64,000 nucleotides of DNA, taken from assembly GCA_963675595.2 (NCBI GenBank), contig CAXXLZ010000002.1, positions 3,776,001 through 3,840,000 of the forward strand, read 5' to 3'. Every line of letters starts with the position of its first letter. Position 1 is the first letter of the stretch. This stretch comes from Thermodesulfobacteriota bacterium. Its GTDB lineage: Bacteria; Desulfobacterota; Desulfarculia; JACQYL01. Position numbers and translations under genes: made by a program. The notes beneath the pieces were generated by a model. That model saw nothing but the letters and a program-made list of their open reading frames with translations, was not told where the DNA came from and did no database searches. Positions 1-58,624 of the stretch are shown here, in pieces.

Positions 1-1
1 A

Positions 2-166
2 GAAGAGTTCCCAAAACTCAGGGACTTCAGAGAAGACCTTGAACGCAGATACCTTCGCGATTTGGTGGACCATTGCCGGGGCAACAAAATGGAGGCCTGC
101 CGCGTATCGGGGCTCTCCAGAGCCCGGCTGTACGACTTACTGAAGAAGTACGATATCCAAGACTGA
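2..166 (+). CDS. C-terminal Fis-type HTH of a sigma54-dependent transcriptional activator (5' truncated by window)
   Basis: Manual translation EEFPKLRDFREDLERRYLRDLVDHCRGNKMEACRVSGLSRARLYDLLKKYDIQD* resembles the NtrC/Fis HTH (GN..EA.R..GLSR..LY..LKKY). Confidence 0.85.
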   Translation, partial: EEFPKLRDFREDLERRYLRDLVDHCRGNKMEACRVSGLSRARLYDLLKKYDIQD

Positions 167-449
167 ATCGTCCTACCTGTACCGCAATTCAGACATGTCC
201 GGTTTCCAAGACATCAGACGCGCGACTTCGGGCACCACGTAATTCTCCTTGATTTTCAATGACATACCCGGAAATGAAGACGTGAAATCCGGAGTCCGCC
301 GGCTCTTCTTCCGGGGCGGATTGCGCTCTCTCTTCCCTCGTGTATGAGGGATTCATCCTAATAAAACAAATGGTTATGCCGGTCGATTCGCGTGTGAATC
401 GGCCGGCATGCTTCTTGATCTTCTTGCGTACGACGGGCATCGGGAATGA

Positions 450-1037
450 GTGACGCATCGGGCGCCACCGGGTTTATCCCGATCCCCCTTAGGGCTTGTG
501 CGCGGAGAGGGCCGGAAAGGATGTGCGGCTTTGAGACTGCTGATTTATGCGAGAGAGGGCGGCGGAGCGGCCCGGCGGCTGGAGACGGAGGTCCGCGGAT
601 TGGACTCATGCGGTCTCGTGGACTGGTCCCATGACCTGGAGCATCTGTGCCGTCTGTTGAGGACCACCCGGCACGCGGATACCATCGGCCTCATTCTTGC
701 CTTCGACTCCTCGGAACTGGCCGCCCTGTTACAAATGAAGGAGCTTTTTCGAGACATACCGTTGGTGGTGATCCTTCCCGATCGGGATGCCGAGACTGTT
801 TCCAAGGGATACGGTCTGGCGCCGCGCTATCTTGATTTTCTGGACGGCGACTTGGGGGACGTGGCTGAGATAGTCCGCAGAATGATGGGGAAGAAAAGCA
901 CTTCCAGGTGGAATGTGGACACGAAAGCGCGCATCACTCGGAGCGGTCCTGCATGCAGCTCCGATTCCGGTAGGGAAGCCCCGGTCCGAACGCCGAAGCC
1001 CGATTCTTCGGACCTGATCAAAAAGACGGTGAATTGA
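450..1037 (+). CDS. Hypothetical protein, possibly a degenerate receiver (CheY-like) fold; real start may be TTG at 531
   Basis: 195-aa ORF with DIPLVVILPD and KGYGLAPRYL resembling receiver beta4/alpha4; lies between a sigma54 activator and chemotaxis genes. Confidence 0.55.
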   Translation: MTHRAPPGLSRSPLGLVRGEGRKGCAALRLLIYAREGGGAARRLETEVRGLDSCGLVDWSHDLEHLCRLLRTTRHADTIGLILAFDSSELAALLQMKELFRDIPLVVILPDRDAETVSKGYGLAPRYLDFLDGDLGDVAEIVRRMMGKKSTSRWNVDTKARITRSGPACSSDSGREAPVRTPKPDSSDLIKKTVN

Positions 1038-1071
1038 GCAATCCGTAAATCAATTGAGTGAAGGGGGGATT

Positions 1072-1379
1072 ATGGCACAAGGCAAGGAAGCTCTGGGGAA
1101 CGGCGGAGGAGTTCGGTGCCGGAAGGAGAGGGCCCGGCCTTCTCGCCGGAATAAGATCGTTGCAGGCGCATTCTCAAGATTAAGGAATTCTTCGGCATGA
1201 TGCCTACCGTCCGGGTTCGCCAAACCCCCGTCCTTGTAAGAGAGGTCGTCAAACTTCACGGCAAATTGATTCCCGTGCTCGACCCGGAACGGGGTCTTCC
1301 TCCAAGGACGGATGAGAACCGCACGCTTGGGGCTTGGTCCCCATCTTATACATTGCGAAAGAATTTATGGATATATTGA
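1072..1379 (+). pseudogene. cheW: Degenerate cheW remnant
   Basis: Frame of 1197 reads [40 protein letters not shown], like CheW ILKIKEIIGMMPITxVPQTPxFVKGVINLRGKVIPVIDL; in-frame TAA at 1152; upstream ATG 1072 with a G-rich RBS is in another frame; C-terminal half missing. Confidence 0.7.
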
Positions 1380-1398
1380 AGATTTAAGGAGAAAGCCA

Positions 1399-3378
1399 GT
1401 GAAGAACCTCAGGTTGGGACTAAAGATATCCGGAGGGTTTGCGGTGTTGATCCTCATCGCCATGGCGGTGAGCGGGGTCGGAGTATTCAACATGGCGGGC
1501 GTCAAGGGGAAAGCCGTCGAACTCGACGAGGCGTATGTTAATGAAGTGGAACTGGTGAGCCGCCTGCAGCAGAACGTTCAGGCCACCATGTACAATATTC
1601 GTGGGTACGCCATGAGTGAGGACCGGAAGTACCTGGAGCCGGGGCTTAAGTTTCTGGACGCTGTGGGCAAGGACCTCCAAGAGTGCCGATCGCTGGCCGA
1701 ACGGTTCCCTCAGCTTACGGCTTTGCGAGAAAACGTGACCAAGGCCCAAGAAGCCGAGGAACACTACCGGACGTTGTTGAACGCCACCGTGGAACTCAAT
1801 GATGCCCTCCAAGCCGCCCGAAAAACCATGGACGAGACCGCCGGCCGCTTCATGGAGAACGCGTATGCTTTCCTGCACAGCCAGAAAGAAGCCCTGCGTC
1901 GGGAGCTGGCCAATGCCGCCGGTGCGGACACGGTTGAGGAACGGTTCTTCAAGGTCGGCCTCATCAACGATATCATAGATTTGGGAAACAGTCTGCGGGT
2001 GGCGAACTTCAAATCGCAAGCTACCTGGAATCCCGCCCTGATCGAGGAGGGGATAAAGGCTTTTCAAGCCGTCTCAGGAAAGTACGAAGAACTCGAGAAC
2101 ATTGTTCGAAAGCAGGAAAACAAGAAGCAACTTGCTGCCATTCAAGAGTCCGGCAACCTGTACATGAAAACGATGAGCAAATTTCTCACAGACTGGAAGG
2201 AACTCCGGAAGCGAGGTGAAGAACGAACCCAAGCCGGCGAAACACTCCTCCAACTTGCGGGCGGCACGTCCGATGTGGGGCTCCGGGGCATGAATCGAAT
2301 CGCCGAGGAAACCGTGTCTTCCTTGAATGCGGCCTCCACGGTTCTGGTGACCGGAGCACTGGTCATGCTCATACTAGGTGTGGGGGTGTCCCTGGTCATC
2401 ACTCGATCCATTACTCGTCCGGTAAACCGGATTATACAAGGCCTAAACGACGCTTCGGATCAGGTAGCTTCGGCCGCCGGCCAAGTTTCCTCCGCGAGCC
2501 AATCTTTGGCGGAGGGATCGTCGGAACAGGCGGCGTCTTTGGAGGAAACCTCCTCTTCTTTGGAAGAGATGGCGTCCATGACCAAACAGAACGCCGAAAA
2601 CGCCTCGCATGCCGACGGCTTGGTGAGACAGACGAACGATGTGGTTCTACACGCTTCGGATTCCATGAAGGAGCTTACCGCTTCCATGGAAGCCATTTCC
2701 GCAGCCAGTACGGAAACGTCCAAAATCATCAAGACCATTGATGAGATCGCTTTTCAAACCAATCTCCTGGCCTTGAATGCCGCCGTGGAGGCGGCTCGAG
2801 CCGGCGAAGCCGGTGCGGGTTTCGCCGTGGTGGCCGACGAGGTGAGAAATCTCGCCATGAGAGCGGCGGAGGCGGCCAAGAGCACGGCCGGCCTTATCGA
2901 AGAAACCGTTAAAAAGGTCAAAGACGGGTCGGGGCTGGTGGAAAAGACCGGAACCGCTTTCTCGGAAGTGGCGTCGGGATCATCCAAGGTGGCCGATTTG
3001 GTGGCGGAGATCGCATCGGCTTCCAAGGAACAGGCCATGGGGATCGAACAGGTCAACACGGCAGTCTCCGAAATGGACCGAGTGACCCAACAGAATGCGG
3101 CGAACGCGGAAGAGTCCGCCAGCGCGGCCGAGGAACTCAGCGCCCAGGCGGAACACATGAAATCCTTTGTGGGAGAGCTTGTTGCTTTGGTTACGGGGAA
3201 AGGACTGAACGGCGGTGCGGCCCCCATGCTGTCCGGCGGTGGAAGAACGAAAGCCAAGGCCCCTAAACGGTTGCGAAGAACGACTATGAAGCAGGCCAAG
3301 TCGCAGAAGCACGGTGCCAGGGAAGTGGATCCGGAAGAAGTGATCCCTTTGGATCGGGATTCTTTGGACGAATTCTAA
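1399..3378 (+). CDS. Methyl-accepting chemotaxis protein (2 TM, helical periplasmic sensor)
   Basis: Signalling tip [40 protein letters not shown]; GTG at 1399 preceded by AAGGAG. Confidence 0.95.
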
Positions 3379-4003
3379 ATCGAAATGTAACAAGGAGCAC
3401 CGGGGCATAGGCGAGATTGCCGGTGCTTCTTCACGATGAAGGAAAAACTCGGGCTTCGGTGAAGAGCCGGCTACGATGAGGGGACGGTTTTTCCGCGAGG
3501 CCCGGCAACCACTCTCTGCGAGGCATGGTTGCAGATGATGCAGGACGGGCATCCCATGCCTGTCCGCATCTTCATGATCACCCGTCTCGACACCCGGTCG
3601 GGCGAACCTCATTTCTCCGCCTGCGTTCCGCGAGGCGTCCTTTCCCGAATTCACCTGTTCTTTCCAATGTATGTACCGGTACGCGCGCGTTCACCGGCGC
3701 GGTGAAATGTGGTTCCGCCGGGCCTCTTGCCGTAGGGTCGTGCCGTCGGCCCTTTGGACGGCAAGAATGGGTTCCCATATGATGCCCGACGGGTTGAGTT
3801 CGCGTGCGAAGTGGAATAGTCTGGCAAGAATTGCCGGGATCGAACGACTCATCTTGTGTATTGGAATATTGAAGTTTGTACCCGTTCGAAACGGTGGAGG
3901 TCGTGAGCCTGCGGCGACGGGCGGGAGGGTCGAAGCCTGAATCTCGCTTCGCCCCGGGCCGAACTCAAGGGACGTTGGCCGACGTCATGAGGGAAGGAGC
4001 AGT

Positions 4004-4768
4004 ATGGGAAGGACGCCGGCGCGGAAGTCAACCATGTTGATCGCGGTCTTGATTTGGTTGTCCGCCGCGGGAACGTGGGCCGCTTGGCTCGATCGACCGC
4101 TGAATCCCACGGGAGAGGAATTCGGGGTACTCATCGGAAGCTGCTCCACCCGAATGGACGGCGATCCTGATCGCACCCACAATATCTCGCTTTGCGCGCG
4201 CAAACTGGACCAGCGCGTCATCCCTCCCCATGGTCGGTTTTCCTTTAATAGCTCCGTCGGCAAACGAACCCTGCAACGGGGATTCAGGAAAGCGCCGGTT
4301 CTCTTTCTGGACGAGATGACCGAACAAGTGGGCGGAGGTGTCTGCCAGGTTTCTTCCACTCTGTACAATGCGGCTTTGCTCGCCGACCTCGATCCCGTTG
4401 AAAGATATAAACATTCCAGCCAAGTATATTACGTCCCCGTGGGTCAGGACGCTACCGTATCCTACGGGCATCGTGATCTTGTCCTGCGGAATCCTTTTGA
4501 TTTCCCGGTGAAACTGCGTGCGGCTGCGAGCCGGTCCGCTCTCACCATGTCATTTTTCGCCGCGGAGCCCCTGCCGTATGAGGTTCGACTCGAACGGTCG
4601 ATACGGGATATCGAGGCTCCCTTTGACAGTCCGTCGGCGAGGCCGGGGCAGGAAGTCCGGATCTACCGGATTCATGTTGGTTCGCAAGGTGAGGAAATCC
4701 ACCGGGAACGGGTTTCGGTGGATCGGTATCCCCCCGTGTACGATTGGAGCGAGGGATACGCACAGTAA
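4004..4768 (+). CDS. VanW-domain protein with N-terminal signal/TM
   Basis: FSFNSSVGKRT, GGGVCQVSSTLYNAAL, ERYKHS, GQDATVSYG..DL..RNP motifs; RBS GAAGGAG. Confidence 0.9.
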   Translation: MGRTPARKSTMLIAVLIWLSAAGTWAAWLDRPLNPTGEEFGVLIGSCSTRMDGDPDRTHNISLCARKLDQRVIPPHGRFSFNSSVGKRTLQRGFRKAPVLFLDEMTEQVGGGVCQVSSTLYNAALLADLDPVERYKHSSQVYYVPVGQDATVSYGHRDLVLRNPFDFPVKLRAAASRSALTMSFFAAEPLPYEVRLERSIRDIEAPFDSPSARPGQEVRIYRIHVGSQGEEIHRERVSVDRYPPVYDWSEGYAQ

Positions 4769-4898
4769 ACGGCAACCACCCAATGCGTCGGCGCGTATTC
4801 GAAACCAATGAGATGCATTCAAGTTGGGCATCGAATTCCACGTGTCCGGCGTTTCGAACACCCGATCTGCGATGACGGATCGTCGCCGGGAAGAGACC

Positions 4899-5540
4899 AT
4901 GCTCGATCGACGGGCGAAGTTTTTAATCTTCATTGTGGCGAGTTTATGGCTCCCGGGCATTTTGGGAATTCCATCAACGGCGGACGCCGTCATTCCCCTG
5001 GCCGAATACGAAAAGATCCGCGGCACCAACCTGGAACGGCTGATTCTTCAAGAAGCCCGCACGGCTATTGAGGAAGTCTTGTCCAACGGCGAGCGGCAAA
5101 AGCACGCTCTGCCCTGGCCCGGACCCCGTGTCGGCCTCTTTCTTACCCTCATGAACGGACGTGGGGTCCGGGCCTGCGCGGGCACTTTTTCTTCCATGGC
5201 CGCTTCTCTGGCGGAGGCTTTGCGGGATGCGGCCGTTTCGGCCGTTTCTCTGGATCCACGAGCCGCGCCGGTGGCTGTTTCCGAACTGACGCATTTGCGC
5301 GTCGTGGTGTCGTTCGTGGGGGAACCGGTGTTTTGCCCGAATCCGTTTCTCATCGATTTCAGACGAGAGGGCCTGATGACCCGAATCGGCGGCCTGGAAC
5401 GGCTATTGTTGCCGGGAGAGGCGAAAACGCTCCAATATGGAATCAGTCGATTGCTGGGCATTTCGGAACCCTCCAAACATACCTTCGAGAGGTTTCCGGT
5501 GGTGACCTTGGACGAACGTAAATGGGAGGACTTGAGATGA
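4899..5540 (+). CDS. AMMECR1-domain protein with predicted signal peptide
   Basis: GLFLTL...VRACAG (cf. LRGCIG), A...DPR..PV...EL..L, REGL, LLLPG; hydrophobic N-terminus ending in ADA; stop overlaps the next start (ATGA). Confidence 0.8.
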   Translation: MLDRRAKFLIFIVASLWLPGILGIPSTADAVIPLAEYEKIRGTNLERLILQEARTAIEEVLSNGERQKHALPWPGPRVGLFLTLMNGRGVRACAGTFSSMAASLAEALRDAAVSAVSLDPRAAPVAVSELTHLRVVVSFVGEPVFCPNPFLIDFRREGLMTRIGGLERLLLPGEAKTLQYGISRLLGISEPSKHTFERFPVVTLDERKWEDLR

Positions 5541-8500
5541 TCAGGCGGACTTGGCCGGTGTTGTTTCTTCTGGTGTTCCTGTTGCTGAATTCCCCGGCGT
5601 TCGGGGAACACATGGAACTGGGCGGAGTCGTGGTGGACCGGCAAACGGGCTCCGGCATCCCGGACGCGCTGGTGGAAATCGAGAACGCCTCCGGCGGAGC
5701 GGGTTATTCCCGTATGGAGACCGATGTCGAAGGAGGATTCCGCTTCGAGAACCTGCCCTCCGGCGTGCGATTTCATGTTTCGGTCACGGCGCAGGGTTAC
5801 GCCTCGACCCTGATGTCCTACTGGGAGCCGGGTTCCGGGACTGTCGAGTCCCGTTTGCGCATCGAGATGCATCCGGAAGGGAGACTCGGCGGCAAGATCA
5901 CCACGAGCCAAGGCCTTCCTTTGGAACGAGCGCGCATCGTATTGGACCAGATTTCACCGCAGCCTTTTCTGGTCAATCATTTTGAGCGGGAAACCGACCG
6001 CGGGGGGACCTACCGAATCGACGGCATCCCCCAAGGCGGCTACCGGATGGTCATCCAAAAGGAAGGGTTCCTGAACGAAGAGTTCAGGAACGTGTTCATC
6101 GCTTCGGGCAAAGACGAGGAGATGAACGTGGTCCTATATGCGCCGGCTTCCATTTCCGGCAGGGTACGGCTGGACGACGGTGAAACCCCGCTGTTCAACA
6201 TCGCGGTAACCGCCGTGGGCCCTGTTTCTTCCTTGTCCAACACGAACCCGGACGGTGAATATCTTGTTGAAAACCTCAAGCCCGGCCTCTATAGCGTGAC
6301 CGCCGCGTCGGATGGATTCAGGCCGCAGAAGAAGAGGATCGAAATCCATGTCGGGGAGGGAGAAACGGTGGAGGGCGTCGAGCTTTTGTTGAGCGCCGAG
6401 CCGTCTCAAATTCGCATCGCCATCTACCAGGATGTCTACACGTTGAATGAGCCTGTGAAGTTTGTCGTCCGAGCGTTCAACCTACCGGGGACAAAGATTC
6501 GTATCTATGAAATTCCCGAACAGGCGTGGGCGACCGATCGCAGTCGCTTCGAACGGCTGCTGGCAGGAAAGGATGACTTGAGCGGGTTAAAACAGGTTCA
6601 TGAATCCTCAATGACTTTCAGCCGCTTTCGACCGTTTTCATGGGTGAGCCGCGAGGTCACGGTGGAGTCCCCCCTAACTCCCGGGGCTTATCTTCTTCAG
6701 GTCGCGACCGACGGAGTCGAGGCCCGACACCCCATATTCATCTCCAACTTGGGCATCGCGGTTTTGCGCGGCAAGGACGATCTGTTGATCTATGCTATGA
6801 ACCTCGAAACCAACCGAGCGGAACCGGGAGCGAACGTATTCGTGTTGAATCGGGAGAAAACCGAATCCGTGGCCGTTCCGAACATCAGTCGACGTATTCT
6901 CGACACGCTCTTTCCAGCGCGATCTCTTCGGCAGGGCGTGACCGACGACTCGGGCCTGCTCCGTCTGAAGGGAATCCAGGAACCGTCGGTTCATCTCTTG
7001 GCGCTGAAGCGGGGGGTGGGATTGGCGGTGACCCACGCGTTCCTGACTCCCTATGCGGCGACCGGCGGACGTAAGGTTCTGATCTACACGGATCGGCCTG
7101 TGTATCGACCGGGGCATGAAGCGCATTTTAAGGCCCTGGTCAAGGAGTTCCGAGAAGGTGTGCCCGAACCCGCGCCCCAAGGAAAATCCATTACCGTGAC
7201 CCTGCGGGATCCCGACGGCAAGGGGGTGTTCACCGGCGAATTCGTCACGGATGATTGGGGTTGCGTTTACGGTTCCATTCCTTTGAGCGCCGATGCGCGC
7301 TTGGGAACCTATGAGCTCTTCGTGGACGGCTTCGCTTCGGGCAGGAGTGTCTTTTCCGTTCAGGCCTACCGAAAACCGGATTTTCAGGTTCGAGTGACCA
7401 CCGATCATGCCGCCTACGTTACGGGGGACCGTGTGCAGGCTCGCGTGGAAGCTCGCTATTTTCTGGGACTTCCTTTGAAAAACGCGCCCATTGAATATCG
7501 CGTGTACGAAACCTTACGGAGCCGTCCGGAAACCACCGCTTGGTGGGAGGCGTCCTACTATGATTCAGCGGGTTACCAAACCGTCATAAAACACGGCAGG
7601 GGTACGACCGATGCCCAAGGTTTTTTTGCCTTTGATTTTCTTCCGGGTCCCAAATCCTACGACCGAACGCTCACCATCGAGGCGGACGTAACCGCGCCTT
7701 CGGGGCGTGTGGAGGACGGTAGGGCGGAGACTGCGTACGAAAGGAGTCGGTACCGAGTCAAACTCGGCCTCGGGGGTTCGGTTTTCCGCACCGGCGAATC
7801 TCCTCGATTGACGGTTCGGGTAGCGAATCAGGAAGGCGATCCCGTGGAGCGGGCAAAGGTCCGCGTGTCCCTGGAACAGGAAACATGGGACCCCGTGCGT
7901 CGCCGGTATGAACGCGGGGCCACCCCGGTTTGGTCGCGGATCGTGGAGACGGGAGTCGGAGGCAAGGCGGAACTGCAGGTTCCGCTGGAAGGTCTTGAGA
8001 GTGGAAAAGCCCAACTCACGGCCGCCACCAAAGACTCCTCAGGCAACCCGGCTGCGTCGCGATGCGATTTCTGGACCTTCACCGGTACGTCGTTTAACGC
8101 CTCATATGACTATCCCGCATTGGACCTGTTTCTCGACAAAGATGCCTATCGTCCGGGAGACAAGGCCCGGCTGGTTCTTCATTCCTCCGTTCCTCAAGCG
8201 GAGGTGTTGCTGACCTTTGAAGGCGAAACCCTCCTGTCTTATCAACGCCTTGTCATGAAGGAGCCCACCCGGATTCTTGAAATCCCCGTGGAGGAATCCT
8301 TTGCACCCAATGTGCACATCTCCGCCTTGCTGCACGACGGCAAGAAACTGCACTACCGGCGAATCTCCTTGAATGTTCCCGTGGAAAGCGGTGACTTCAA
8401 CTTGTCCGCGGCCTTTGACCGCGAGGAATATGCTCCCGGGGACCCGGCGGAAGTGGTCATCCGATGCACCGGCGACGACGGGAAACCGGTGAATGCCGAC

Positions 8501-10831
8501 ATGAGTCTTGCCGTGGTGGATGAAGCCGTCTACCGCATCGCCGAAGATCGGACGCCGGACCCTGCGGACTTTTTCTACGCCTTGCGGCCGCCCTGGTTTT
8601 CACTCACGTATTCCTTCCCACTCCGCTTCATCGGGGGAGCCACGAAAGACCGGGGCGATCTGAGGGCGAGAACGAATTTTAAAGACACGGCCCTCTGGAT
8701 TCCCAACCTTCGAACGGGAACATCGGAAACGGTGAGCGCCGCCTTCACCATGCCCGATAATCTCACCACTTGGCGGGCGACCATTTTGGGGCATACCAAG
8801 GAAGGGCGTTTCGCCCTTGAGCGGACCCGCACCTTGAGCAGCAAGCCGCTGGCCGTTTCCCTGAAGCCTCCTCGTTTTCTCGTGGCGGGCGACCGCATGG
8901 AGGTCTCCGCCGTCTTGGTGAATCGGACGGAAGAACCCCTGGAAACCGCGTACGCGATGCTCACTCCCGAAGCAGGGGTCGAACTGTTGACCGAGCCCCG
9001 GCGATCCGTTTCTCTCCCCGCAGGAGGTACCGCGAGAACCTCCTGGGTGTTGTCCGCCGAAGATGCGGCAAGCGCGCGAATGACCGTTCGGGGGGGAGCC
9101 GACGGCATGGAAGATTCGGAACGCCGCGATTTTCCCATCGCCGATCCCGGCATTCCTCTGAGAGTGGGAATTTCCGGGCGAATCGAAGGCGACAGCGGAC
9201 AAGCGAGCCTTCTGATCCCTGAGGACGCCTCTCTTCGGAGGGCCGCTGCGGAAATATCGGTGACGCCGCATCCCGCTTTGGCCGCGTTCTCCGCTGTTCC
9301 TTATCTCACGGCGTTTCCCTATGGTTGTGCCGAACAGACCCTGAATGCCTTCTTGCCCGTGGCGGTCTACCTGAGCACCTTGAACGCGCTCGGTCTGGAA
9401 GTTCAGACGGAAGCGGCGCTCATCAAGAACCTCGAAGAAGGACTGGGCCGCCTGCAACGTTTTATCAACTACGACGGAGAGGTCTCCTGGGGTCCCTATT
9501 CGGACCCGGACCCCTATCTAACGGCTCTTGCCTATTTTTCCTTACTGAGAGCCGTGGATTTATTGGGTTTGGATGGAACAAAGAAGTCTTTGGACCGTGG
9601 GGCCGGGCTTTCGGAGGAAGAGACCCCGCTGCTTTCGGGGCTTCTGCGCGATCACGACGGATTAACCCGAAGAATGGAACATGCCCTGATCCGCTTTCTG
9701 GAAGCGGAGCGACGGAGGTCCATGCAGCTTTTCATCCTGCTGGCCCTGACCGAGGGCGAGTACAGAGACCCCAAGACCGCCGGCGACTTGGCTTTGCAAC
9801 TGGATGCCATGGATCCCATGGAATTGGGCATGGCCATCCCCGTATGGAAGCGGCATGGAATGGAACTCACGGTGCAGTTGGCCCTGAACAAGCTCAAGAG
9901 TTTCGCCGTGGAGACTCCTCACGGAGTGCATTTCGCCCTTTCGGATCAACAAACCCAAGACGTCGATCTGGTGGAGCAGAACGCTTTTTGTCTCATGGCC
10001 TTGACATCGGCATCTCCGGAGGACCCGCTTGTCGATTCTTTGACGAATTGGATACTGGCTCAGAGAAGAGGTCTGCAATGGCATTCCACCAGGGCGTCGG
10101 GATTGTGCTTGTTGGCCTTGTCCCGAGTGTTCGCATCGGACCCGAACCTCAAATCATTTCAAGGCGGCAGCCTGAGGGTCACGGTCAACGGGAAGGAACT
10201 CGGCGAGTTCCAACTGAGTCCCGAAACGCTGAAAGCCGGTGTGGACCCCAACATGTCCATCCCCGTCGAGTTGTTCCACGCAGGCAACAACGAAATTCGG
10301 TTCCAGGGACAAAAACTCTCTCGGGTCTATTATGCGGTGCAGGTCGATGCACATGATCGGCGCATTTTCGGCGATCCTTTCTCCGAGGGTTGCGCCGTGT
10401 ACCTGGACAAGGAACTGCATATCGGCAAGAGGGTTCTGGACAGTCAAAATCGACCGCGGATTCTGCCGGCGGACTTGTCCGAGGGGATTCATCCGGGGGA
10501 CGAAGTACTGGTTCGTGTGTCTTTTACGCCGGATCGGGATTACCGGTATTTCCTTCTGGAGGATTACCTGCCCGCCGGGTTCGAAACCGTGGATTTCGAG
10601 TCCTCGCAGGAGGTTTCTTGGTGGCCGGTCTACGCGTGGAAGGAACGGCACGACCGTCGTGTGGCCTTTTTCTTTCCTCGATTGCGCGAAGGGGAGGAGG
10701 TTTCTCTGGAATATGTGATTCGGGCGGAATCTCCGGGAATGTTTTTGGTGAAACCGGCCGTGCTCTCCGATTTTTACACTCCGGACATTCGGGCGGTGAG
10801 CCGCTCTTCGAAGATCGAGGTGCAACGATAG
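5537..10831 (+). CDS. Bacterial alpha-2-macroglobulin family protein with N-terminal carboxypeptidase-regulatory-like repeats
   Basis: IYTDRPVYRPG, QAYRKPDF, SLAVVDEAV, RTNFKDTALW, PDNLTTWR, thioester PYGCAEQT (CAEQ at 9326-9337), LEDYLPAGFE. Confidence 0.93.
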   Translation: MIRRTWPVLFLLVFLLLNSPAFGEHMELGGVVVDRQTGSGIPDALVEIENASGGAGYSRMETDVEGGFRFENLPSGVRFHVSVTAQGYASTLMSYWEPGSGTVESRLRIEMHPEGRLGGKITTSQGLPLERARIVLDQISPQPFLVNHFERETDRGGTYRIDGIPQGGYRMVIQKEGFLNEEFRNVFIASGKDEEMNVVLYAPASISGRVRLDDGETPLFNIAVTAVGPVSSLSNTNPDGEYLVENLKPGLYSVTAASDGFRPQKKRIEIHVGEGETVEGVELLLSAEPSQIRIAIYQDVYTLNEPVKFVVRAFNLPGTKIRIYEIPEQAWATDRSRFERLLAGKDDLSGLKQVHESSMTFSRFRPFSWVSREVTVESPLTPGAYLLQVATDGVEARHPIFISNLGIAVLRGKDDLLIYAMNLETNRAEPGANVFVLNREKTESVAVPNISRRILDTLFPARSLRQGVTDDSGLLRLKGIQEPSVHLLALKRGVGLAVTHAFLTPYAATGGRKVLIYTDRPVYRPGHEAHFKALVKEFREGVPEPAPQGKSITVTLRDPDGKGVFTGEFVTDDWGCVYGSIPLSADARLGTYELFVDGFASGRSVFSVQAYRKPDFQVRVTTDHAAYVTGDRVQARVEARYFLGLPLKNAPIEYRVYETLRSRPETTAWWEASYYDSAGYQTVIKHGRGTTDAQGFFAFDFLPGPKSYDRTLTIEADVTAPSGRVEDGRAETAYERSRYRVKLGLGGSVFRTGESPRLTVRVANQEGDPVERAKVRVSLEQETWDPVRRRYERGATPVWSRIVETGVGGKAELQVPLEGLESGKAQLTAATKDSSGNPAASRCDFWTFTGTSFNASYDYPALDLFLDKDAYRPGDKARLVLHSSVPQAEVLLTFEGETLLSYQRLVMKEPTRILEIPVEESFAPNVHISALLHDGKKLHYRRISLNVPVESGDFNLSAAFDREEYAPGDPAEVVIRCTGDDGKPVNADMSLAVVDEAVYRIAEDRTPDPADFFYALRPPWFSLTYSFPLRFIGGATKDRGDLRARTNFKDTALWIPNLRTGTSETVSAAFTMPDNLTTWRATILGHTKEGRFALERTRTLSSKPLAVSLKPPRFLVAGDRMEVSAVLVNRTEEPLETAYAMLTPEAGVELLTEPRRSVSLPAGGTARTSWVLSAEDAASARMTVRGGADGMEDSERRDFPIADPGIPLRVGISGRIEGDSGQASLLIPEDASLRRAAAEISVTPHPALAAFSAVPYLTAFPYGCAEQTLNAFLPVAVYLSTLNALGLEVQTEAALIKNLEEGLGRLQRFINYDGEVSWGPYSDPDPYLTALAYFSLLRAVDLLGLDGTKKSLDRGAGLSEEETPLLSGLLRDHDGLTRRMEHALIRFLEAERRRSMQLFILLALTEGEYRDPKTAGDLALQLDAMDPMELGMAIPVWKRHGMELTVQLALNKLKSFAVETPHGVHFALSDQQTQDVDLVEQNAFCLMALTSASPEDPLVDSLTNWILAQRRGLQWHSTRASGLCLLALSRVFASDPNLKSFQGGSLRVTVNGKELGEFQLSPETLKAGVDPNMSIPVELFHAGNNEIRFQGQKLSRVYYAVQVDAHDRRIFGDPFSEGCAVYLDKELHIGKRVLDSQNRPRILPADLSEGIHPGDEVLVRVSFTPDRDYRYFLLEDYLPAGFETVDFESSQEVSWWPVYAWKERHDRRVAFFFPRLREGEEVSLEYVIRAESPGMFLVKPAVLSDFYTPDIRAVSRSSKIEVQR

Positions 10832-10872
10832 GAGAAGCACCTCGCCGGTGCCGGTCGAATAGACACCGGCCA

Positions 10873-10905
10873 CCGTGGGGCGCTTCCGGAAAAAGCGCCC
10901 CACGG
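10873..10905. terminator. Hairpin between convergent genes (likely bidirectional terminator)
   Basis: ccgtggggcgctt / aagcgccccacgg perfect 13-bp stem. Confidence 0.65.
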
Positions 10906-10919
10906 CAAAGCCGGATTAC

Positions 10920-11741
10920 CTATTTGTAGATTTTGCTGGTCTTGGCGCGAAGGCTGTCCTGGGTTTCGCCGTCCATTTCCATCTTCTTGGTGAAGAGCTC
11001 GGAAAGGTCCAGGAACCCGATGACCTTTTCCGGACAGACGTCCATGCACCGCAGGCAGAAGACGCACAGGTCCGCTCGGGCCTCACCCGATGTGGCGTCC
11101 ATGGCCCCGGAAGGGCAAAGCTCCTCGCAGAGCATGCACATCCCGCACTCGGCTCCGTCCCTTCCGGGTCTTCGCGGCAGGAGTTTGGGGACGGACGTCT
11201 CCCTCTGGTCCAGTTCCTCCACACTACAGGGCCCCAACGGCAGGGCCGCCCAATCCAGACGTTCCTCACCGGAAAAACGATCATGGATCAAGTCGGCATA
11301 TTCCCGCGCCACGTCGAAATCCGATGTAGCGGGCCGATCGGCCATGGCCTGCCAACCCACCAGGTTGTAGGTGTGCTTTCCGGGAAATTCAGCCGAGGCG
11401 ACCAGGCTGAAACCGTTTGGAGCGAGAATCCCGGCGGCGGAAAAATGGGCCGGATGGACCCCGAATCCTCCAAAGGTGAAAAACAGGGCACACGGGGTGT
11501 CTTGTCCCTTCAATCGTCCCAGCCAATTGCGAACGATTTTTGGCGCGCGCCTGTAGTAAATGGGGGAACCGATTACCACGGCCTGGTAGTTGTTCATAAC
11601 CGGAGCCGTTTCACGGGCCTCGGGAGTGGTTATGTCCAGCATGTCGACCTCGGCGCCCAGCTCAATCAACCGATCCCGAATGGTCTCGGCGATTCGCGCG
11701 GTATTCTGCGTAGCGCTGAAATAAGCCAATAGAATTTTCAT
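10920..11741 (-). CDS. EFR1-family flavodoxin-ferredoxin fusion
   Basis: YFSATQNTARIA flavodoxin loop; two CxxCxxCxxxCP motifs (CGMCMLCEELCP, CVFCLRCMDVCP). Confidence 0.9.
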   Translation of the reverse strand: MKILLAYFSATQNTARIAETIRDRLIELGAEVDMLDITTPEARETAPVMNNYQAVVIGSPIYYRRAPKIVRNWLGRLKGQDTPCALFFTFGGFGVHPAHFSAAGILAPNGFSLVASAEFPGKHTYNLVGWQAMADRPATSDFDVAREYADLIHDRFSGEERLDWAALPLGPCSVEELDQRETSVPKLLPRRPGRDGAECGMCMLCEELCPSGAMDATSGEARADLCVFCLRCMDVCPEKVIGFLDLSELFTKKMEMDGETQDSLRAKTSKIYK

Positions 11742-12309
11742 TGTTTCCTGCCTTCCTTTTCGGGTTGTCTTTCAGGTTGAACAACCCCCTCGGGTGTAAT
11801 TTTATGCGCATTCAGAGGGTCTAGTTTAGCAGATTCATAGGACAATACAATCCAACCGGGAATTTTGTTAAGAACGGATTTCGCGGGTACGTGCCTTGCC
11901 ATGGACGGGGGAGATCAAGTCCCTTTTTTCTACCGGTCCTTGAGTCAATATGACTTCAATGGTTCAGAGAGGAAACCGGACCGTTTTTCGTCCCGGGAAA
12001 GAAGAAACATGGAAGGGGATTCGGTGAACTTGGATGGTCGAGACGTGCTCGGCCGGGGACGTCTTGTAGTCACCCGACGCCGGCGGCCGAGAGAGCCCGA
12101 AGAGATGATTCAATCGTGAACCCACGCGCGTCACGTTTGGGAACCGCGAGGAAAGCCCTTTGCGGGTCGTCGTTACGGATGGTCATGCCTGTGATGGATT
12201 TCGGATGGGAAAGCGCGTGTTCCGCATCAACCTACGCTCGCGGGGATGAGGCAAGAACTCAACTCTCCGATCAGACCGGCGTTGCGCCGTCGAGGCTTCC
12301 CATCCGAGA

Positions 12310-13269
12310 CTAAAAGCCCGCTTTTTGGTCCCGTTCCTCGTTCCAGCGGACCCAGTCGTTGGTATCCTCTTCCTTGGTGAAGTCTGTGGGTTTGGATGCG
12401 CGCCCTTGTGCGTCGATTCGCACCTGCTGCATGGCCCGGACGATGTAGACCCATTCCATCATGGAGACTTCCCTGGGGCCCGCCACTTCTTTAGGCCCCG
12501 CAGACGTGGCGGAGGGCCCGGACACTTCTCCCGGGCCGGATACTTCCCGAGGCGGTCCGCCCGTTCCGGAGCCCGGGGCGATTCGGGATTCCGTGGGACC
12601 GGGGGCGCCCACGGAGGAGGGACCCGCGGAAGCCGCGGCCTTGGGAGGTGACCATACTTTGATTTCTCCCGAGTAAACCCGGACGAGCGTTCCCTCCTCC
12701 GGGCTTTCATTGACCCGGTAAGTGGTGCCGCGAATGCCCGCCACCGCGTTCCGCGTATATAAGTCGAAGTTGTTCTTTACCCCGGCCAAGGATTTCACCT
12801 TGGCCCAGGTTCTCCCCGCAAACAGGGTGAACCGGATGTCCCGTTCCTTGGTTTGGGCCTGTACGTCGATGCTCGTTACGACGAAGGTGGTGGTTTCGTC
12901 GAATCGCATCAGACTGCTGTCCGGAAGCTTGAGCTCCATACGGGCGTGTTCCAGGGTCTTTACCATGTCCCCGGGTACCAGGAAGTCCCCTTCCTTCAGG
13001 TCTTCCCAATCCTTCCCATCCTTGCGATGAACCTGAGCGAGGCCCTCGAGCAGGTCCACCCGGGCTTTATCGCCCGCGATGTCCAGCTCGAAGGCCTCGT
13101 CTCCCGCCGGCGCGTTGACCGGACAGGTCCAGTCGATAAAGGCACAACAGAGGAAGCAGAGACAAAGCAGGCCGATGACTCGGCTCGGGGTGGTGCGGAC
13201 GGCTTTTGGGTGCATAACCTGTTCTCCGGGAGTAGGGACGCCCTTCTTGCGGAACGATGGGCGGAACAA
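12310..13269 (-). CDS. FecR-domain protein (start uncertain)
   Basis: L..GD.VKT....RMEL.LPD.SLMRFDE.T, T.NAVAGIRGT, VRVYSGEI. Confidence 0.85.
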   Translation of the reverse strand: MFRPSFRKKGVPTPGEQVMHPKAVRTTPSRVIGLLCLCFLCCAFIDWTCPVNAPAGDEAFELDIAGDKARVDLLEGLAQVHRKDGKDWEDLKEGDFLVPGDMVKTLEHARMELKLPDSSLMRFDETTTFVVTSIDVQAQTKERDIRFTLFAGRTWAKVKSLAGVKNNFDLYTRNAVAGIRGTTYRVNESPEEGTLVRVYSGEIKVWSPPKAAASAGPSSVGAPGPTESRIAPGSGTGGPPREVSGPGEVSGPSATSAGPKEVAGPREVSMMEWVYIVRAMQQVRIDAQGRASKPTDFTKEEDTNDWVRWNEERDQKAGF

Positions 13270-13316
13270 GACTTATGGGTACTCCCGGAGGAGCGCCGGG
13301 CTCCTCCGGGCAAGGA

Positions 13317-14486
13317 TTACAGTTTCAGGAGGTTCTTGAGTCGGCGGATCACCAACAGGGCGTCCGCCCCGTCCACCGGACCTTGGGCGTTGAATTCGCC
13401 CGTGGCCAAGCTCTCCGCTTCCATGACTCCTCGGCTCGTGACCACCATGACCGCGTTGAAGTACGGTAGATCGCTTCTGAGGTCCGGGAAGGGAGAGGTG
13501 GTCCCGATGAATTCGGTGGCGAGTTTCTCGTCTCCGGTGAGCTTGATCAGGATGTCTTCAACCATAATGGCATATTCCGCCCGGTTGATGTGTTCGTCGG
13601 GATGAAAGGTGTGGTCCGGGTAAGGTTCCAGCCCCCGTACTCCCAGTTTAATGACTTCGTCGATGTCCGTTTTGAGGGGGTGTTCGCCGATGTCCACCGC
13701 GGGTTCCATTTTGACCAGGGTTTCCGTGACGAATTGTTTCTCCGGTGACTTAAAGCTCGTGTCGAAATCCTTCCGACCTCGTTTGCGATAGAGTTCGTTG
13801 AGCTTGAGTTCCTGAATGAAAAGCGCCGCCACGTCCGCACGACTGATCTTGTCGATCAATGCGATTTTCTTGCCGATGAGCGTTCCCGGCGCGGCACGTT
13901 CGATCTTCTGCACCAGTTTCCATTCTGCGTTGGCCTGGTTTACGTAATCACCGTCGATTTCGATCACTTTGGAGAACATATCGGCCGATTTGCCGAACTC
14001 GTAAGCCGCACGGTAGGCCATGCCCATGAAATAATAGGCCGGGGCGTAACGGTCGTTGAGCTTCACGGCCTTCTTGAAATGGTCTTCAGCATCTTCGACC
14101 CAATCGCCGCCTCTTTGCGCGGCGTAGATTCGGACCATGCCCACATGGTAGTCCAGTTTTTCCTGGGCGGTTTCCATGGTGTCTTCCGCTTTGTCCATGT
14201 TCTTGAATGCGGATTCGAAGTCGCCTCGCAAGGCGGCTACAATACCGAGGCCCGAAAAGGCCCGCGAGTACTCGGGCTCCAATTGGACGGCCAGATTGAA
14301 CTCTCGTTCCGCATCGTCCAAACGCTCTTCTTCCAGGAGCCTGAGGCCGGTGAGAACATGGTGCTCCGGCGTATCCATCGCGCCGGTGGGTTTTCGAATC
14401 TCGGGCTTTTCGGCGCAGGAGGCCACGAGCAGCAAAGCACCTATAGCCATGAACACCGTAAGAAACCTTGCTCGTCTTCTCATCAT
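13317..14486 (-). CDS. TPR and S-layer-homology (SLH) domain lipoprotein
   Basis: Lipobox LVASC; TPR repeats; SLH motifs ISRADVA, YPDHTFHPDEHINRAEYA, FPDL...G.F...PVDGADA. Confidence 0.8.
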   Translation of the reverse strand: MMRRRARFLTVFMAIGALLLVASCAEKPEIRKPTGAMDTPEHHVLTGLRLLEEERLDDAEREFNLAVQLEPEYSRAFSGLGIVAALRGDFESAFKNMDKAEDTMETAQEKLDYHVGMVRIYAAQRGGDWVEDAEDHFKKAVKLNDRYAPAYYFMGMAYRAAYEFGKSADMFSKVIEIDGDYVNQANAEWKLVQKIERAAPGTLIGKKIALIDKISRADVAALFIQELKLNELYRKRGRKDFDTSFKSPEKQFVTETLVKMEPAVDIGEHPLKTDIDEVIKLGVRGLEPYPDHTFHPDEHINRAEYAIMVEDILIKLTGDEKLATEFIGTTSPFPDLRSDLPYFNAVMVVTSRGVMEAESLATGEFNAQGPVDGADALLVIRRLKNLLKL

Positions 14487-14526
14487 CCCATCCTCCCTTC
14501 TCGTAGGGGACACCCGTTTTTTCCGG

Positions 14527-15483
14527 TTAGTCCAGCACAATCATGGCCCGGCATTGGCGCAGGAAGGACAATGTTTCCGACGCGTCGCGCAGTGAGTTCG
14601 CGGCTTCGTTGCTGATCACCACATTGGTCTTGGCGGTGCCGGCCGCGGCTTTGGCATGAATGGTCACGGGATTGTTGGTCACTCGCTGATTGCTTTGAGC
14701 GGCGTTGAGGTCCTTGGCATACCCCACCATGCCGTACTGAACGGCCCATTGGCGGTCCACAAAGGCGGAGCCGTAGACTTCCCGTCCGTCTTCGTCCAGC
14801 ACTCTCGGGCTCATGCAAGGCCTTACACCCATACCGCGGGCGTCGATGACCAGCCCGGTGTAAACCACTCCGGGTTGAGCCACGGGTTCGGCCTTGGCCG
14901 GTTCCGAAGGAGCGGGTTGCGCAGGGGCGGCCTGAGGTTGCACGGGTTGGGGCTGAGCGGGCTGGGGGGCGACGGGTTGAGGAGCGACGGGCTGCGGGTG
15001 CACGGGCTGGGATGCAGGCTTGGAGGGCTCGGCAGCGCCGAGAATCATGTCCGTGAACCGGCCGTACATGTTCATGATCATCTTGATTTCGACCGTCCCG
15101 TCTTCCAGGTAGCGGGTGTTGAGGATCCTGGCGCCTCGAATCATACCGTCCACCTGAGCACGGATCACATCGCTCTGAGTCATGAAGTCCTGCACCGTGG
15201 TGTTGGAATTGACCTGGACGCCTTTGGTGATTTCGAGAAGATTGCGGTACGCGTCCAAGGTGGCGGCCCGGAGCGCCATGGGCCTGGCGGCGGGCTTGCC
15301 CTGCAGGTGTTCCGGGGGCGCGCCGATACCGGTCACGGTGATGTTCCCGTCACCCCAATTGACGCTGCCACCGGCGGTTTGTTCCACATAGCCCCATTGC
15401 CACTGGGCCTCCGCGACCCCCATGAACAGGAAGACGGATAGGAGAATCAACGCCGCGATTCCCATCGGTGATTTCCGTGTCAT
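14527..15483 (-). CDS. LPP20-like exported protein with Pro/Gln-rich linker
   Basis: ARPMALRAATLDAYRNLLE..GVQV.S.TTV.D; YTGLVIDARG; signal peptide AEA. Confidence 0.75.
   Translation of the reverse strand: MTRKSPMGIAALILLSVFLFMGVAEAQWQWGYVEQTAGGSVNWGDGNITVTGIGAPPEHLQGKPAARPMALRAATLDAYRNLLEITKGVQVNSNTTVQDFMTQSDVIRAQVDGMIRGARILNTRYLEDGTVEIKMIMNMYGRFTDMILGAAEPSKPASQPVHPQPVAPQPVAPQPAQPQPVQPQAAPAQPAPSEPAKAEPVAQPGVVYTGLVIDARGMGVRPCMSPRVLDEDGREVYGSAFVDRQWAVQYGMVGYAKDLNAAQSNQRVTNNPVTIHAKAAAGTAKTNVVISNEAANSLRDASETLSFLRQCRAMIVLD
14905..15015 (-). repeat. Coding low-complexity repeat (PQPVA-like units)
   Basis: PVHPQPVAPQPVAPQPAQPQPVQPQAAPAQPAP; approximately 15-bp periodicity. Confidence 0.7.
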
Positions 15484-15571
15484 ATCTGCAACTCCTTTTA
15501 TATTGATAAGTTACGACAATAGTGAGCCGTTCGGAACGTCGAGATGAACCGGTCCGTATCCCCTCCTTTCG

Positions 15572-16465
15572 CTATGAAGTTCGTTGAAGATAATATTTGG
15601 CCGCTTTGTTTCCGGGATGAATGGAAAGCGTCTTCTTCCAATATTTCGCGGCTTCTTCGCGTTTACCGGCCTTGAAGGCTTCGAAGGCCAGAATGTTGTA
15701 CGTTTTCGCCAGGTTGAGGATGGTTTCCTGGTCTTTGGGGTTGATGGAAAGGGCTTGATTCCAGAGTTCCAGAGCTTTGGGCGTGTCCCCATGATTGTAG
15801 TAAATCCACCCCATGGAGTTCAATGCTTTCGTATGCCGGGGGTTCAGTTCCAGCGTCTTTCGGTACTCGAGGAGGGCGTTGTGCACGAGCCCGGCCTGGT
15901 CGAAGGCGCGGGCCAGCCGAAAGCGCGTGTCCGCCTCGTCCGCCGCGGCGTCCCTGGCTTTCTTCAAGTAGTCGATGGCCTGAATCGGATTATGCCGGAA
16001 AGCGTATACGGTCCCCATGTAATGGTAGGCGTCGGCGCGGTTGGGGTCCAATCGGGCCGCTTCTTCCAGAATCTTGAGGGCGTTTTCCAGATCGAAATCC
16101 CAAAGGTCGAGAAGACCCAGCCAAAGTCGGGCTTCGACGTTTTCCGGTTCGGCTTGGACGGCCTTTTTCAGCAAGGTGCGGGCTTCTTGGGTTTTTTCCC
16201 GCTTGACGTTGAGAATCCCCAGGAAGGTCAGAGCCGTGGGATTTTCGGGTTCCACCGCGAGCACCTTTTCAAAAGCCCGGGCGGCGGCTTCCACGTCCCC
16301 CCGATAGTTCAGGTCCATGGCCTGGAACAGGAGTTCCTCGACCCCTTGGGCCGAAGCGGGACCCATGGAGAATGCAAGCGCCAAGAAGACGATTCCGGCG
16401 ACGACCCACGGACGCGGGAAGGCCCTATTTGCCGGACATGCGCAGGATGGATTGGAAGGCCACAT
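15572..16465 (-). CDS. Exported tetratricopeptide repeat protein
   Basis: About 7 TPR units; signal peptide ending in ASA; start uncertain. Confidence 0.85.
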   Translation of the reverse strand: MWPSNPSCACPANRAFPRPWVVAGIVFLALAFSMGPASAQGVEELLFQAMDLNYRGDVEAAARAFEKVLAVEPENPTALTFLGILNVKREKTQEARTLLKKAVQAEPENVEARLWLGLLDLWDFDLENALKILEEAARLDPNRADAYHYMGTVYAFRHNPIQAIDYLKKARDAAADEADTRFRLARAFDQAGLVHNALLEYRKTLELNPRHTKALNSMGWIYYNHGDTPKALELWNQALSINPKDQETILNLAKTYNILAFEAFKAGKREEAAKYWKKTLSIHPGNKAAKYYLQRTS

Positions 16466-17564: not shown

Positions 17565-17577
17565 CGTTTTCCCATTC

Positions 17578-20394: not shown

Positions 20395-20436
20395 CTCAGG
20401 TCCCCTCCCCTTGCTTGTCCGTTGCAGGTCACCGGG

Positions 20437-22146: not shown

Positions 22147-22164
22147 ACCGGATGGCTCCCTGTC

Positions 22165-55342: not shown

Positions 55343-55459
55343 GTATTCTATTGGGTGCGCGGATACTTTCCGGCTTTATTTGTCGATATTTGTGATTATG
55401 AAGACACACGCATTCCGGGGACGCTCCTGCATGAGCAATAGCCATGTTTCTCCTGCGGG

Positions 55460-56827: not shown

Positions 56828-57179
56828 GTTGGGCGTGGCCTCTTTCTTGTTGGTGCAATTATATCAATTGGTTGGCACCTTTTTGATACCATGCGGGGCA
56901 AGAATTTTCCACCCTAATCTGCGCGATTTTCTTTTTATTATAATAACTTAGCTGTCCTGGACAGACACGAACTAATTTCGCTGTGAGCTGTTTGCACAGT
57001 TCTGAGCGCATTTTTTCGGATGATTGCCCCGGTCTGATGGGCGCTCAAGAACGTATTGATGCCGTCATCATGCCTTCAGCTGCCGATTGTGGCCAAACGA
57101 GCAGTTTTTCAGCGGGTCAGGACATGGCTATCCTTTCAAGCCCCAGTTTCGGCCACGGAACGGGTCATCAGGACCCGGA

Positions 57180-58505: not shown

Positions 58506-58624
58506 AGCCTTCACCTGTTGAGTGAATCGATAACAGGCAACACTATTACAGAAATAACTCATTTTATCAAATAGTTATGTGGGCAACCATGTTAACCTCA
58601 TAGTTTCCCATTCACGGATTCAGG

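Follow-up and report, generated by a model that had tools for sequence, protein, structure and literature searches.

Organization of the Locus

In a 64,000-nucleotide stretch of a Thermodesulfobacteriota genome (assembly GCA_963675595.2, contig CAXXLZ010000002.1, positions 3,776,001 to 3,840,000), which we call the window, three consecutive genes encode a VanW-domain protein, a predicted secreted AMMECR1-like protein and a thioester alpha-2-macroglobulin (A2M). The open reading frame (ORF) map and the sequence bear out the claim of an earlier note on this DNA that the three genes are co-oriented and that the last two are coupled by an ATGA overlap (Table 1). This coupling, together with the anatomy of the genes and the convergent orientation of the gene downstream, indicates that vanW, the AMMECR1-like gene and the A2M gene form a three-gene unit, which we refer to as the trio. 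Our analyses confirm that the trio is a real, conserved module. The frames of the second and third genes extend beyond the starts chosen here, with the AMMECR1-like ORF spanning 4824-5540 and the A2M ORF 5522/5537-10831. A promoter and terminator scan of the locus gave nothing decisive; a weak sigma-70-like match is present at 3755-3783, and such matches are at least as common in shuffled sequence. No Rfam family matches positions 1-16000.

The VanW gene of the trio is the only one in the genome. After a hydrophobic N-terminal stretch, its product consists of a VanW domain alone (PF04294, 150.3 bits with the cut-off at 27, covering profile positions 2-129 of 130), and its motif, GGGVCQVSSTLY, fits the pattern GGG.CQ.SST that had been claimed for it. 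In an alignment of 26 VanW proteins, Cys114, His137 and Asp158 are invariant and Asp149 is nearly so, such that the acid of a catalytic triad could be either Asp149 or Asp158. According to the parts of PMC11348318 that we draw on, the VanW domains of Clostridioides difficile are L,D-transpeptidases, and Cys-to-Ala mutants lose cross-linking. So far as aligned sequences can indicate, the invariant residues of the trio protein fit the Cys-His-Asp triad proposed for those enzymes.

The A2M is likewise the sole representative of its family in the genome. Translation from the ATG at 5537 yields the N terminus MIRRTWPVLFLLVFLLLNSPAFGEH, a predicted signal peptide that has no Cys and hence no lipobox. 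Pfam domains of the protein include three N-terminal CarboxypepD_reg domains, MG2 (74.2 bits), A2M_BRD (58.9 bits), A2M (64.5 bits), TED and bMG10 (69.3 bits), with the TED_complement match being weak (24.9 bits against a cut-off of 22). The thioester motif is present, because the translation of positions 9314-9346 reads FPYGCAEQTLN, with GCAEQ at residues 1263-1267. Among the seven trio A2Ms in our collection, all keep GC[ATV]EQ, none carries a lipobox by pattern search, and six share a conserved ...EV.R C terminus.

Table 1. Positions of the trio, its key residues and its immediate neighbors in the window
Feature	Position	Strand	Basis or remark
Chemotaxis receptor gene	1312-3378	+	Upstream neighbor of the trio
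Intergenic region, 625 nt, probably with the vanW promoter (candidate)	3379..4003	+	Gap between the chemotaxis receptor gene and vanW
vanW, 254 aa, single-domain VanW protein with a signal or anchor segment at the N terminus; candidate Cys-dependent L,D-transpeptidase	4004..4768	+	PF04294 match
VanW Cys114 codon, in GGGVCQ; proposed nucleophile	4343..4345	+	Sequence read; invariant alignment column
Secreted AMMECR1-like gene, 213 aa from ATG 4899	4899..5540	+	PF01871 match; predicted signal peptide
AMMECR1-like Cys93 codon, in VRACAG; counterpart of the RGChG Cys	5175..5177	+	Alignment
ATGA overlap of the A2M start codon (5537-5539) and the AMMECR1-like stop codon (5538-5540)	5537..5540	+	Sequence read
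Thioester A2M gene, 1764 aa	5537..10831	+	Pfam domains and translation
A2M CAEQ thioester motif, residues 1264-1267	9326..9337	+	Translation of the region
EFR1-type ferredoxin/flavodoxin gene, convergent with the trio	10920-11741	-	Downstream neighbor

A Secreted Branch of the AMMECR1 Family

The middle gene of the trio has an ATG at 4899 that sits after the stretch GGGAAGAG and yields the predicted signal peptide MLDRRAKFLIFIVASLWLPGILGIPSTADA, which ends in ADA; alternative starts are TTG 4824 and ATG 4872. The match of its product to PF01871 (66.2 bits against a cut-off of 25) covers only profile positions 2-131 of 168 and leaves the C-terminal quarter unmatched. A second AMMECR1 gene, on contig C3 of the same genome, is the canonical cytoplasmic copy (193.9 bits) and is distinct from the secreted one. 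For the family as a whole, Balaji and Aravind proposed the RGChG and DxRa motifs as the active site, as stated in the portion of PMC2034487 used here. In the protein of the window RGChG reads RACAG, with the Arg, the Cys and the last Gly kept, and DxRa reads DPRA, with the Asp and Arg kept and the aromatic residue lost. Cys93, Asp119 and Arg121 are invariant in an alignment of seven secreted copies with the canonical paralogue, and in the AMMECR1-like proteins of the distant family described below the Arg preceding the Cys is also replaced. A PGE[AS][KR]T motif is common to all seven secreted copies, and the canonical paralogue is without it.

An AlphaFold2 model of the AMMECR1-like protein has a mean pLDDT of 83.1. 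When this model was compared with known structures by Foldseek, all matches at E < 0.001 were AMMECR1 structures, the best being 1zq7, 1vaj and 1wsc (1.5e-11 to 6e-7), with moderate TM-scores of 0.37-0.55. The protein as modeled has the AMMECR1 fold. It scores 45.9 bits on TIGR04335 (AmmeMemoRadiSam system protein A), below the cut-off of 99, and Pfam annotation of the genes neighboring the trio reveals neither a Memo nor a radical SAM partner.

Relatives of this protein were sought in several ways. A profile made from the seven secreted copies retrieves 884 cluster representatives at E <= 1e-10 and 36 at E <= 1e-30. Among the best 150 of the 884, at least 117 have a hydrophobic N-terminal segment by a crude, home-made criterion, 91 have a PGE-type motif and 145 have the Cys motif; judged from these matches, the secreted branch is a sizeable one. 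The commonest phyla of the three nearest clusters in the ESM Atlas are Spirochaetota, Candidatus Eiseniibacteriota and Thermodesulfobacteriota, which is a lead only; an organism name is given for just one of ten secreted AMMECR1 clusters. A word-based protein search with the AMMECR1-like query returned three proteins, including that of the window. A scan of genome contigs, in which near-identical genomes were possibly omitted, gave no orthologue and two loci with short, weak matches of 33 and 42 residues.

Distribution of the Gene Order

The gene order, whose restriction to this genome would have spoken against the earlier note on its own terms, recurs in four other genomes and on three metagenome contigs. 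Among 61 relatives, one encodes a clear orthologue of the secreted AMMECR1-like protein (45% identity), the remaining AMMECR1 matches being canonical paralogues with E values of 1e-10 or weaker. This relative, G001, belongs to the same family and to another genus, and it carries vanW, the AMMECR1-like gene and the A2M gene in the same order amid different flanking genes. Its AMMECR1-like and A2M ORFs (9246-9983 and 4036-9249, minus strand, locus L038) overlap by 4 bases. The three metagenome contigs (L042-L044) are of the G001 type and, over the parts of the locus that they cover, have the genes in the same order.

VanW is rare in the phylum, being found in 3 of the 61 relatives and in 4 of 401 genomes sampled evenly across the phylum. 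All four VanW genes of that sample lie in a trio, and overall the trio is present in five of the six VanW-bearing genomes that we found in the phylum. Three of these (G086, G221 and G359) represent two genera of one distant family, in which vanW overlaps the secreted AMMECR1 gene by 4 nt and a thioester A2M gene follows. The A2M gene is directly next in G221, comes after one inserted DUF559 gene in G086, and in G359 is preceded by a set of inserted genes, among them Sel1-repeat and Mrr-type restriction-endonuclease genes. Identity between the two families is only 26% for A2M, 32-35% for VanW and 21-22% for the AMMECR1-like protein, yet the linkage is the same, which argues that it is either old or was transferred as a unit. 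Recurrence is confirmed within this one phylum.

A second phylum, reached through locus L040 and surveyed in its own 401-genome sample, supplied further VanW proteins for comparison. In a tree of 37 VanW proteins, those of the trios group with the long PG_binding_4-VanW-G5 type (support 100) and are separate from those of the second phylum and of G056, the sixth VanW-bearing genome of the first phylum; the two trio clades are unresolved relative to the long-form VanWs. Because the PG_binding_4-VanW-G5 type is the domain layout of the enzymes that have been tested, this grouping supports a role of the trio VanW in the wall. As a separate observation, a gene encoding a class I SAM-methyltransferase (about 220 aa) lies directly upstream of vanW and overlaps it at 4 of the 11 loci of the second phylum (L069, L073, L075 and L076).

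Relation to pbpC-Linked Macroglobulins

The earlier note had found no pbpC in the window, and this absence extends to the entire genome. The best score on TIGR02073 (PBP_1c) is 181 bits against a cut-off of 494, from an 810-aa class A penicillin-binding protein (PBP) encoded at C2:2.05 Mb, 1.7 Mb from the trio. The single weak BiPBP_C match is a 721-aa protein near flgI that has neither a transglycosylase nor a transpeptidase domain. This protein and an adjacent one of 479 aa, both encoded just upstream of flgI (L048, G000:C2:775574-779247), have an Ig-like BiPBP_C as their sole Pfam match. The diderm nature of the host, which had also been asserted, is borne out by the presence of LpxC and of the flagellar P-ring protein FlgI.

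Across the phylum sample, A2M was detected in 123 of the 401 genomes (133 matches, a few of them parts of the same gene) and BiPBP_C in 109. At least 78 of the 133 A2M loci, from 76 genomes, have BiPBP_C within 8 kb; the figure is a lower bound, since one locus that had been counted as unlinked (in G027) proved on retrieval to have a full PBP1C alongside. VanW lies within 10 kb of four A2M loci, and no locus has both partners. The other arrangement also occurs in the same family and order as the organism: G002, a third genus of the same family, has an A2M gene with BiPBP_C 4 kb away and no VanW, and in G003, from the same order, A2M adjoins BiPBP_C, again with no VanW. The proposed mutual exclusivity of the trio and pbpC therefore holds in the sense that none of the five trio genomes has a PBP_1c match over the cut-off and that no A2M locus combines the two partners, but it rests on about two independent lineages. 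The proposal that VanW and AMMECR1 stand in place of PBP1C survives in part. The alternation is supported, but we see no swap of neighbors beside the same A2M, and in the A2M tree the VanW-linked proteins branch separately from those linked to pbpC.

That tree, a quick maximum-likelihood reconstruction of 29 A2Ms in which the long-branch row L049 is unreliable, places six VanW-linked A2Ms in a half without any pbpC-linked A2M (SH-aLRT 99). The same half also holds one DUF1175-linked A2M, two that are MscS-linked and a further six whose context is unknown. The VanW-linked proteins are split into two groups, and the VanW label needs two changes on the tree. We also considered a single origin of the VanW-linked A2Ms, which is unsupported given these two changes and the position of the VanW clades, unresolved against the long-form VanWs. 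Judging from the tree and the domain layout, the A2Ms of the trio belong to a lineage of their own, which the N-terminal CarboxypepD_reg domains set apart.

Another kind of A2M locus has the protein split near TED into ORFs of about 1066 and 484 aa, followed by a gene for a stand-alone PF00905 transpeptidase (342-355 aa). It occurs in L064 (G072, 5726-11528) and L066 (G354, 5502-11179), with DUF1175 upstream in one of them. The split A2M is either a natural two-chain protein or the product of misleading start or stop calls. A2M is thus found paired with three unrelated wall cross-linking enzymes, namely PBP1C, the stand-alone PBP transpeptidase and VanW, which provides the strongest comparative argument that VanW acts on the wall. 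The other A2M loci that we retrieved have no wall enzyme nearby; they adjoin MscS/HEAT, omptin or YfbK genes or have no neighbors of note. At one of these (L061 in G076, 4973-11806), the thioester A2M gene adjoins a gene for an omptin-family outer-membrane protease, placing a trap beside a protease.

Other Features of the Window

A long run of envelope genes on the minus strand (12310-24462) heads towards the A2M operon. In order, it comprises genes for a FecR-like protein, a TPR protein with SLH, an LPP20 lipoprotein, a TPR protein, a TPR protein fused to Amidase_3 (N-acetylmuramoyl-L-alanine amidase), a GNA1162-like lipoprotein with a beta-helix, a TPR protein fused to SpoIID, and a CHASE2 protein fused to adenylate/guanylate cyclase. 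Two TPR-bearing enzymes of wall hydrolase type are therefore encoded 6-12 kb from the trio. Because the flanks of the trio in G001 (L038) hold other genes, the envelope-gene run is probably not part of the module. Farther away, two DDE transposase ORFs of 460 aa with identical Pfam scores (53898-55280 and 57180-58562, minus strand) flank another transposase gene (55460-56827), and the cluster at 53898-58562 looks like a nest of insertion sequences.

Discussion

The sections of PMC3735191 available to us distinguish two classes of bacterial A2M, one with a lipobox and CLEQ and encoded beside pbpC, and the other without the Cys and encoded in a six-gene operon. Type I is exemplified by Escherichia coli ECAM/YfhM with pbpC (Budd et al. 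2004, as summarized in PMC3735191), and the pair of A2M and PBP1C is also the commonest arrangement in the phylum of the window, accounting for the 78 or more linked loci counted above. The trio resembles it in that the A2M is secreted and contains a bait-region domain, a CxEQ thioester and MG10, and in that a nearby gene encodes a putative peptidoglycan cross-linking enzyme. However, the trio A2M lacks the lipobox, carries three N-terminal CarboxypepD_reg domains and falls on another branch of the A2M tree. Its enzymatic partner would be the Cys enzyme VanW rather than a class A PBP, which is a Ser enzyme with a glycosyltransferase, and the trio adds a fixed secreted AMMECR1-like partner and has no adjacent pbpC. 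With type II, represented by magABCDEF of Pseudomonas aeruginosa and the yfaS cluster of E. coli, the trio shares a secreted non-lipoprotein A2M, a multi-gene operon and secreted partners of unknown function, and its A2Ms share a half of the tree with the DUF1175-linked A2M. Nevertheless, MagD has neither the Cys nor CxEQ according to the same portion of PMC3735191, whereas the trio A2M has CAEQ, and the trio consists of three genes, among which and around which Pfam annotation found no DUF1175 or Mag-type partner genes.

The two smaller proteins can be compared with known families in the same manner. Like Ldt4 and Ldt5 of C. difficile, as described in the part of PMC11348318 that we use, the trio VanW is a predicted extracytoplasmic VanW domain with conserved Cys, His and Asp. 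Unlike them, it has no domain besides VanW, with PG_binding_4, G5 and other wall-binding domains all absent. It is also linked to A2M, and its host is a diderm, a kind of bacterium in which VanW is rarely encoded (4 of the 401 genomes in the first phylum sample and 10 of the 401 in the second). The AMMECR1-like protein shares with its family (PF01871; 1vaj, 1zq7, 1wsc) the modeled fold and the proposed active-site Cys, Asp and Arg. It differs in its predicted secretion, in having RACAG for RGChG, in the lack of Memo or radical SAM genes nearby and in the PGE[AS][KR]T motif of the secreted copies. We found no publication that treats VanW or AMMECR1 together with a macroglobulin in a search by titles and abstracts, with most subscription journals lying outside it.

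Our observations comprise the genes, their motifs and signals for export, the conservation of their linkage and its alternation with pbpC, and from these we infer every biochemical activity in what follows. The interpretation that we prefer, and to which we give slightly less than an even chance, is that the trio is a trap-and-mend module, a three-gene operon for periplasmic envelope defense. Its domains and motif suggest that the exported A2M would be cut in its bait region by an intruding protease and that the CAEQ thioester would then capture the protease covalently. VanW, exported or anchored in the membrane through its N terminus, would use its Cys together with His and Asp to make or edit cross-links from tetrapeptide stems. 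By homology with the VanW-type enzymes of C. difficile, it may mend the wall, as PBP1C has been proposed to do in the A2M-pbpC pair. L,D-transpeptidases have been linked to envelope-stress repair in E. coli. The secreted AMMECR1-like protein, which keeps the candidate catalytic Cys, Asp and Arg, would be an obligatory third component that assists in a Cys-dependent step. Because its gene is always directly 3′ of vanW, it most likely works with VanW.

A number of observations weigh against this interpretation. In the literature, as represented by the sections of PMC3735191 used here, wall repair by a PBP1C encoded beside A2M is no more than a hypothesis itself, and in the corresponding part of PMC11348318, L,D-transpeptidase activity is reported for only three of seven tested VanW proteins from species other than C. 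difficile. The trio VanW is without the PG_binding_4 and G5 domains of the tested type, and since the genome also contains two YkuD genes it is not the sole candidate L,D-transpeptidase. The alternation with pbpC amounts to about two independent lineages, and in G001, G086 and G359 a class A PBP without the C-terminal domain scores 329-385 bits on PBP_1c (cut-off 494), such that each of these genomes may have a PBP1C-like enzyme lacking that domain. Nor does VanW go with A2M everywhere. In the second phylum, home-built profiles (E <= 1e-5) placed A2M or AMMECR1 near VanW at none of 11 loci from 10 genomes, the flanks covering up to about 10 kb per side, with four shortened by contig ends. The exception within the first phylum, G056, which is from the same class as the organism of the window, has a vanW gene that overlaps a Peptidase_M15 gene (D-Ala-D-Ala dipeptidase, VanX/VanY-like; L039, G056:C1 11422-12886) and next to these lies a gene whose product has an NADase_transloc/F5_F8 type C domain, whereas the A2M gene of G056 adjoins pbpC elsewhere in the genome. 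The partnership of vanW with Peptidase_M15 likewise suggests that VanW has to do with peptidoglycan stem peptides. Finally, the module always includes the secreted AMMECR1-like protein as its third member, and a reading in terms of wall repair leaves this protein unexplained, giving it no defined role.

Alternatively, VanW might serve as a tether that covalently attaches A2M, or the complex of A2M and protease, to the sacculus and so fixes the trap in the periplasm. YkuD enzymes, for example, link Lpp or outer-membrane proteins to peptidoglycan. Such a function would suit an acyl-transferase that is tightly linked to one very large substrate-like protein, as well as the shared C terminus of six of the seven trio A2Ms. 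It would also suit the absence of a lipobox from all seven, given that the classical type I A2M is a lipoprotein in the account of PMC3735191 on which we rely. However, several pbpC-linked A2Ms of the phylum also seem to lack a lipobox, as far as crude start calls can tell, so the missing lipid anchor is not specific to the trio and this part of the argument is weakened. Moreover, VanW has no known acceptor or donor motif for protein substrates, and searches for fusions found no A2M domain in longer VanW relatives among the best 120 of 911 matches and no PF04294 in A2M relatives among the best 120 of 235. On balance we regard the tether as unlikely. More doubtful still is the view that VanW and the AMMECR1-like protein do not act on peptidoglycan and instead are maturation or control factors for A2M, which form, protect or reset the thioester in the oxidizing periplasm or process the protein. 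The conserved reactive Cys or thioester in all three proteins and the translational coupling of the AMMECR1-like and A2M genes, both here and in G001, are compatible with such factors, as is the requirement of P. aeruginosa MagD for operon partners in its localization and cleavage (PMC3735191, in the sections used). Nevertheless, thioester A2M loci linked to pbpC have no such helpers, and the VanW domain has a demonstrated peptidoglycan substrate according to the passages of PMC11348318 cited above. In the distant family, furthermore, inserted genes separate A2M from vanW and the AMMECR1 gene, which still overlap; it thus appears that VanW and AMMECR1 are the tighter pair.

It is also conceivable that the three genes share no function and are chance neighbors or hitch-hikers on one transferred fragment. 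The rarity of the trio (4 of 401 genomes in the phylum sample) and the variation of its flanking genes between lineages, which is compatible with mobility, would accord with this. However, the linkage is kept at 21-35% protein identity, includes 4-nt overlaps and withstands insertions within the cluster. By a rough estimate, with frequencies of about 1% of genomes for VanW and about 31% for A2M, it is very unlikely that four of four VanW genes would lie within 10 kb of A2M by coincidence. We consider this explanation very improbable. A bolder reading would make the trio a third, widespread macroglobulin class, in which the A2M thioester, the AMMECR1-like Cys and the VanW Cys act in sequence, with the captured protease or A2M being handed on and covalently stapled to peptidoglycan or with wall repair being triggered at the site of capture. 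This is a long shot, to which we attach somewhat less weight than to the maturation factors. If it were true, AMMECR1, a family of obscure function in organisms from archaea to humans, would for the first time be placed in a biochemical context, and the VanW enzymes of diderms would gain a role.

The trio is a further arrangement of bacterial A2M systems, with different conserved partners, beyond the two types that have been described. The pairing of A2M with three unrelated wall cross-linking enzymes offers independent support for the proposed coupling of protease trapping to wall mending. Through the trio, VanW enzymes, which are rare in diderms, gain a defined genetic context, and a secreted branch of the AMMECR1 family is placed in a putative envelope pathway that is open to laboratory experiments.

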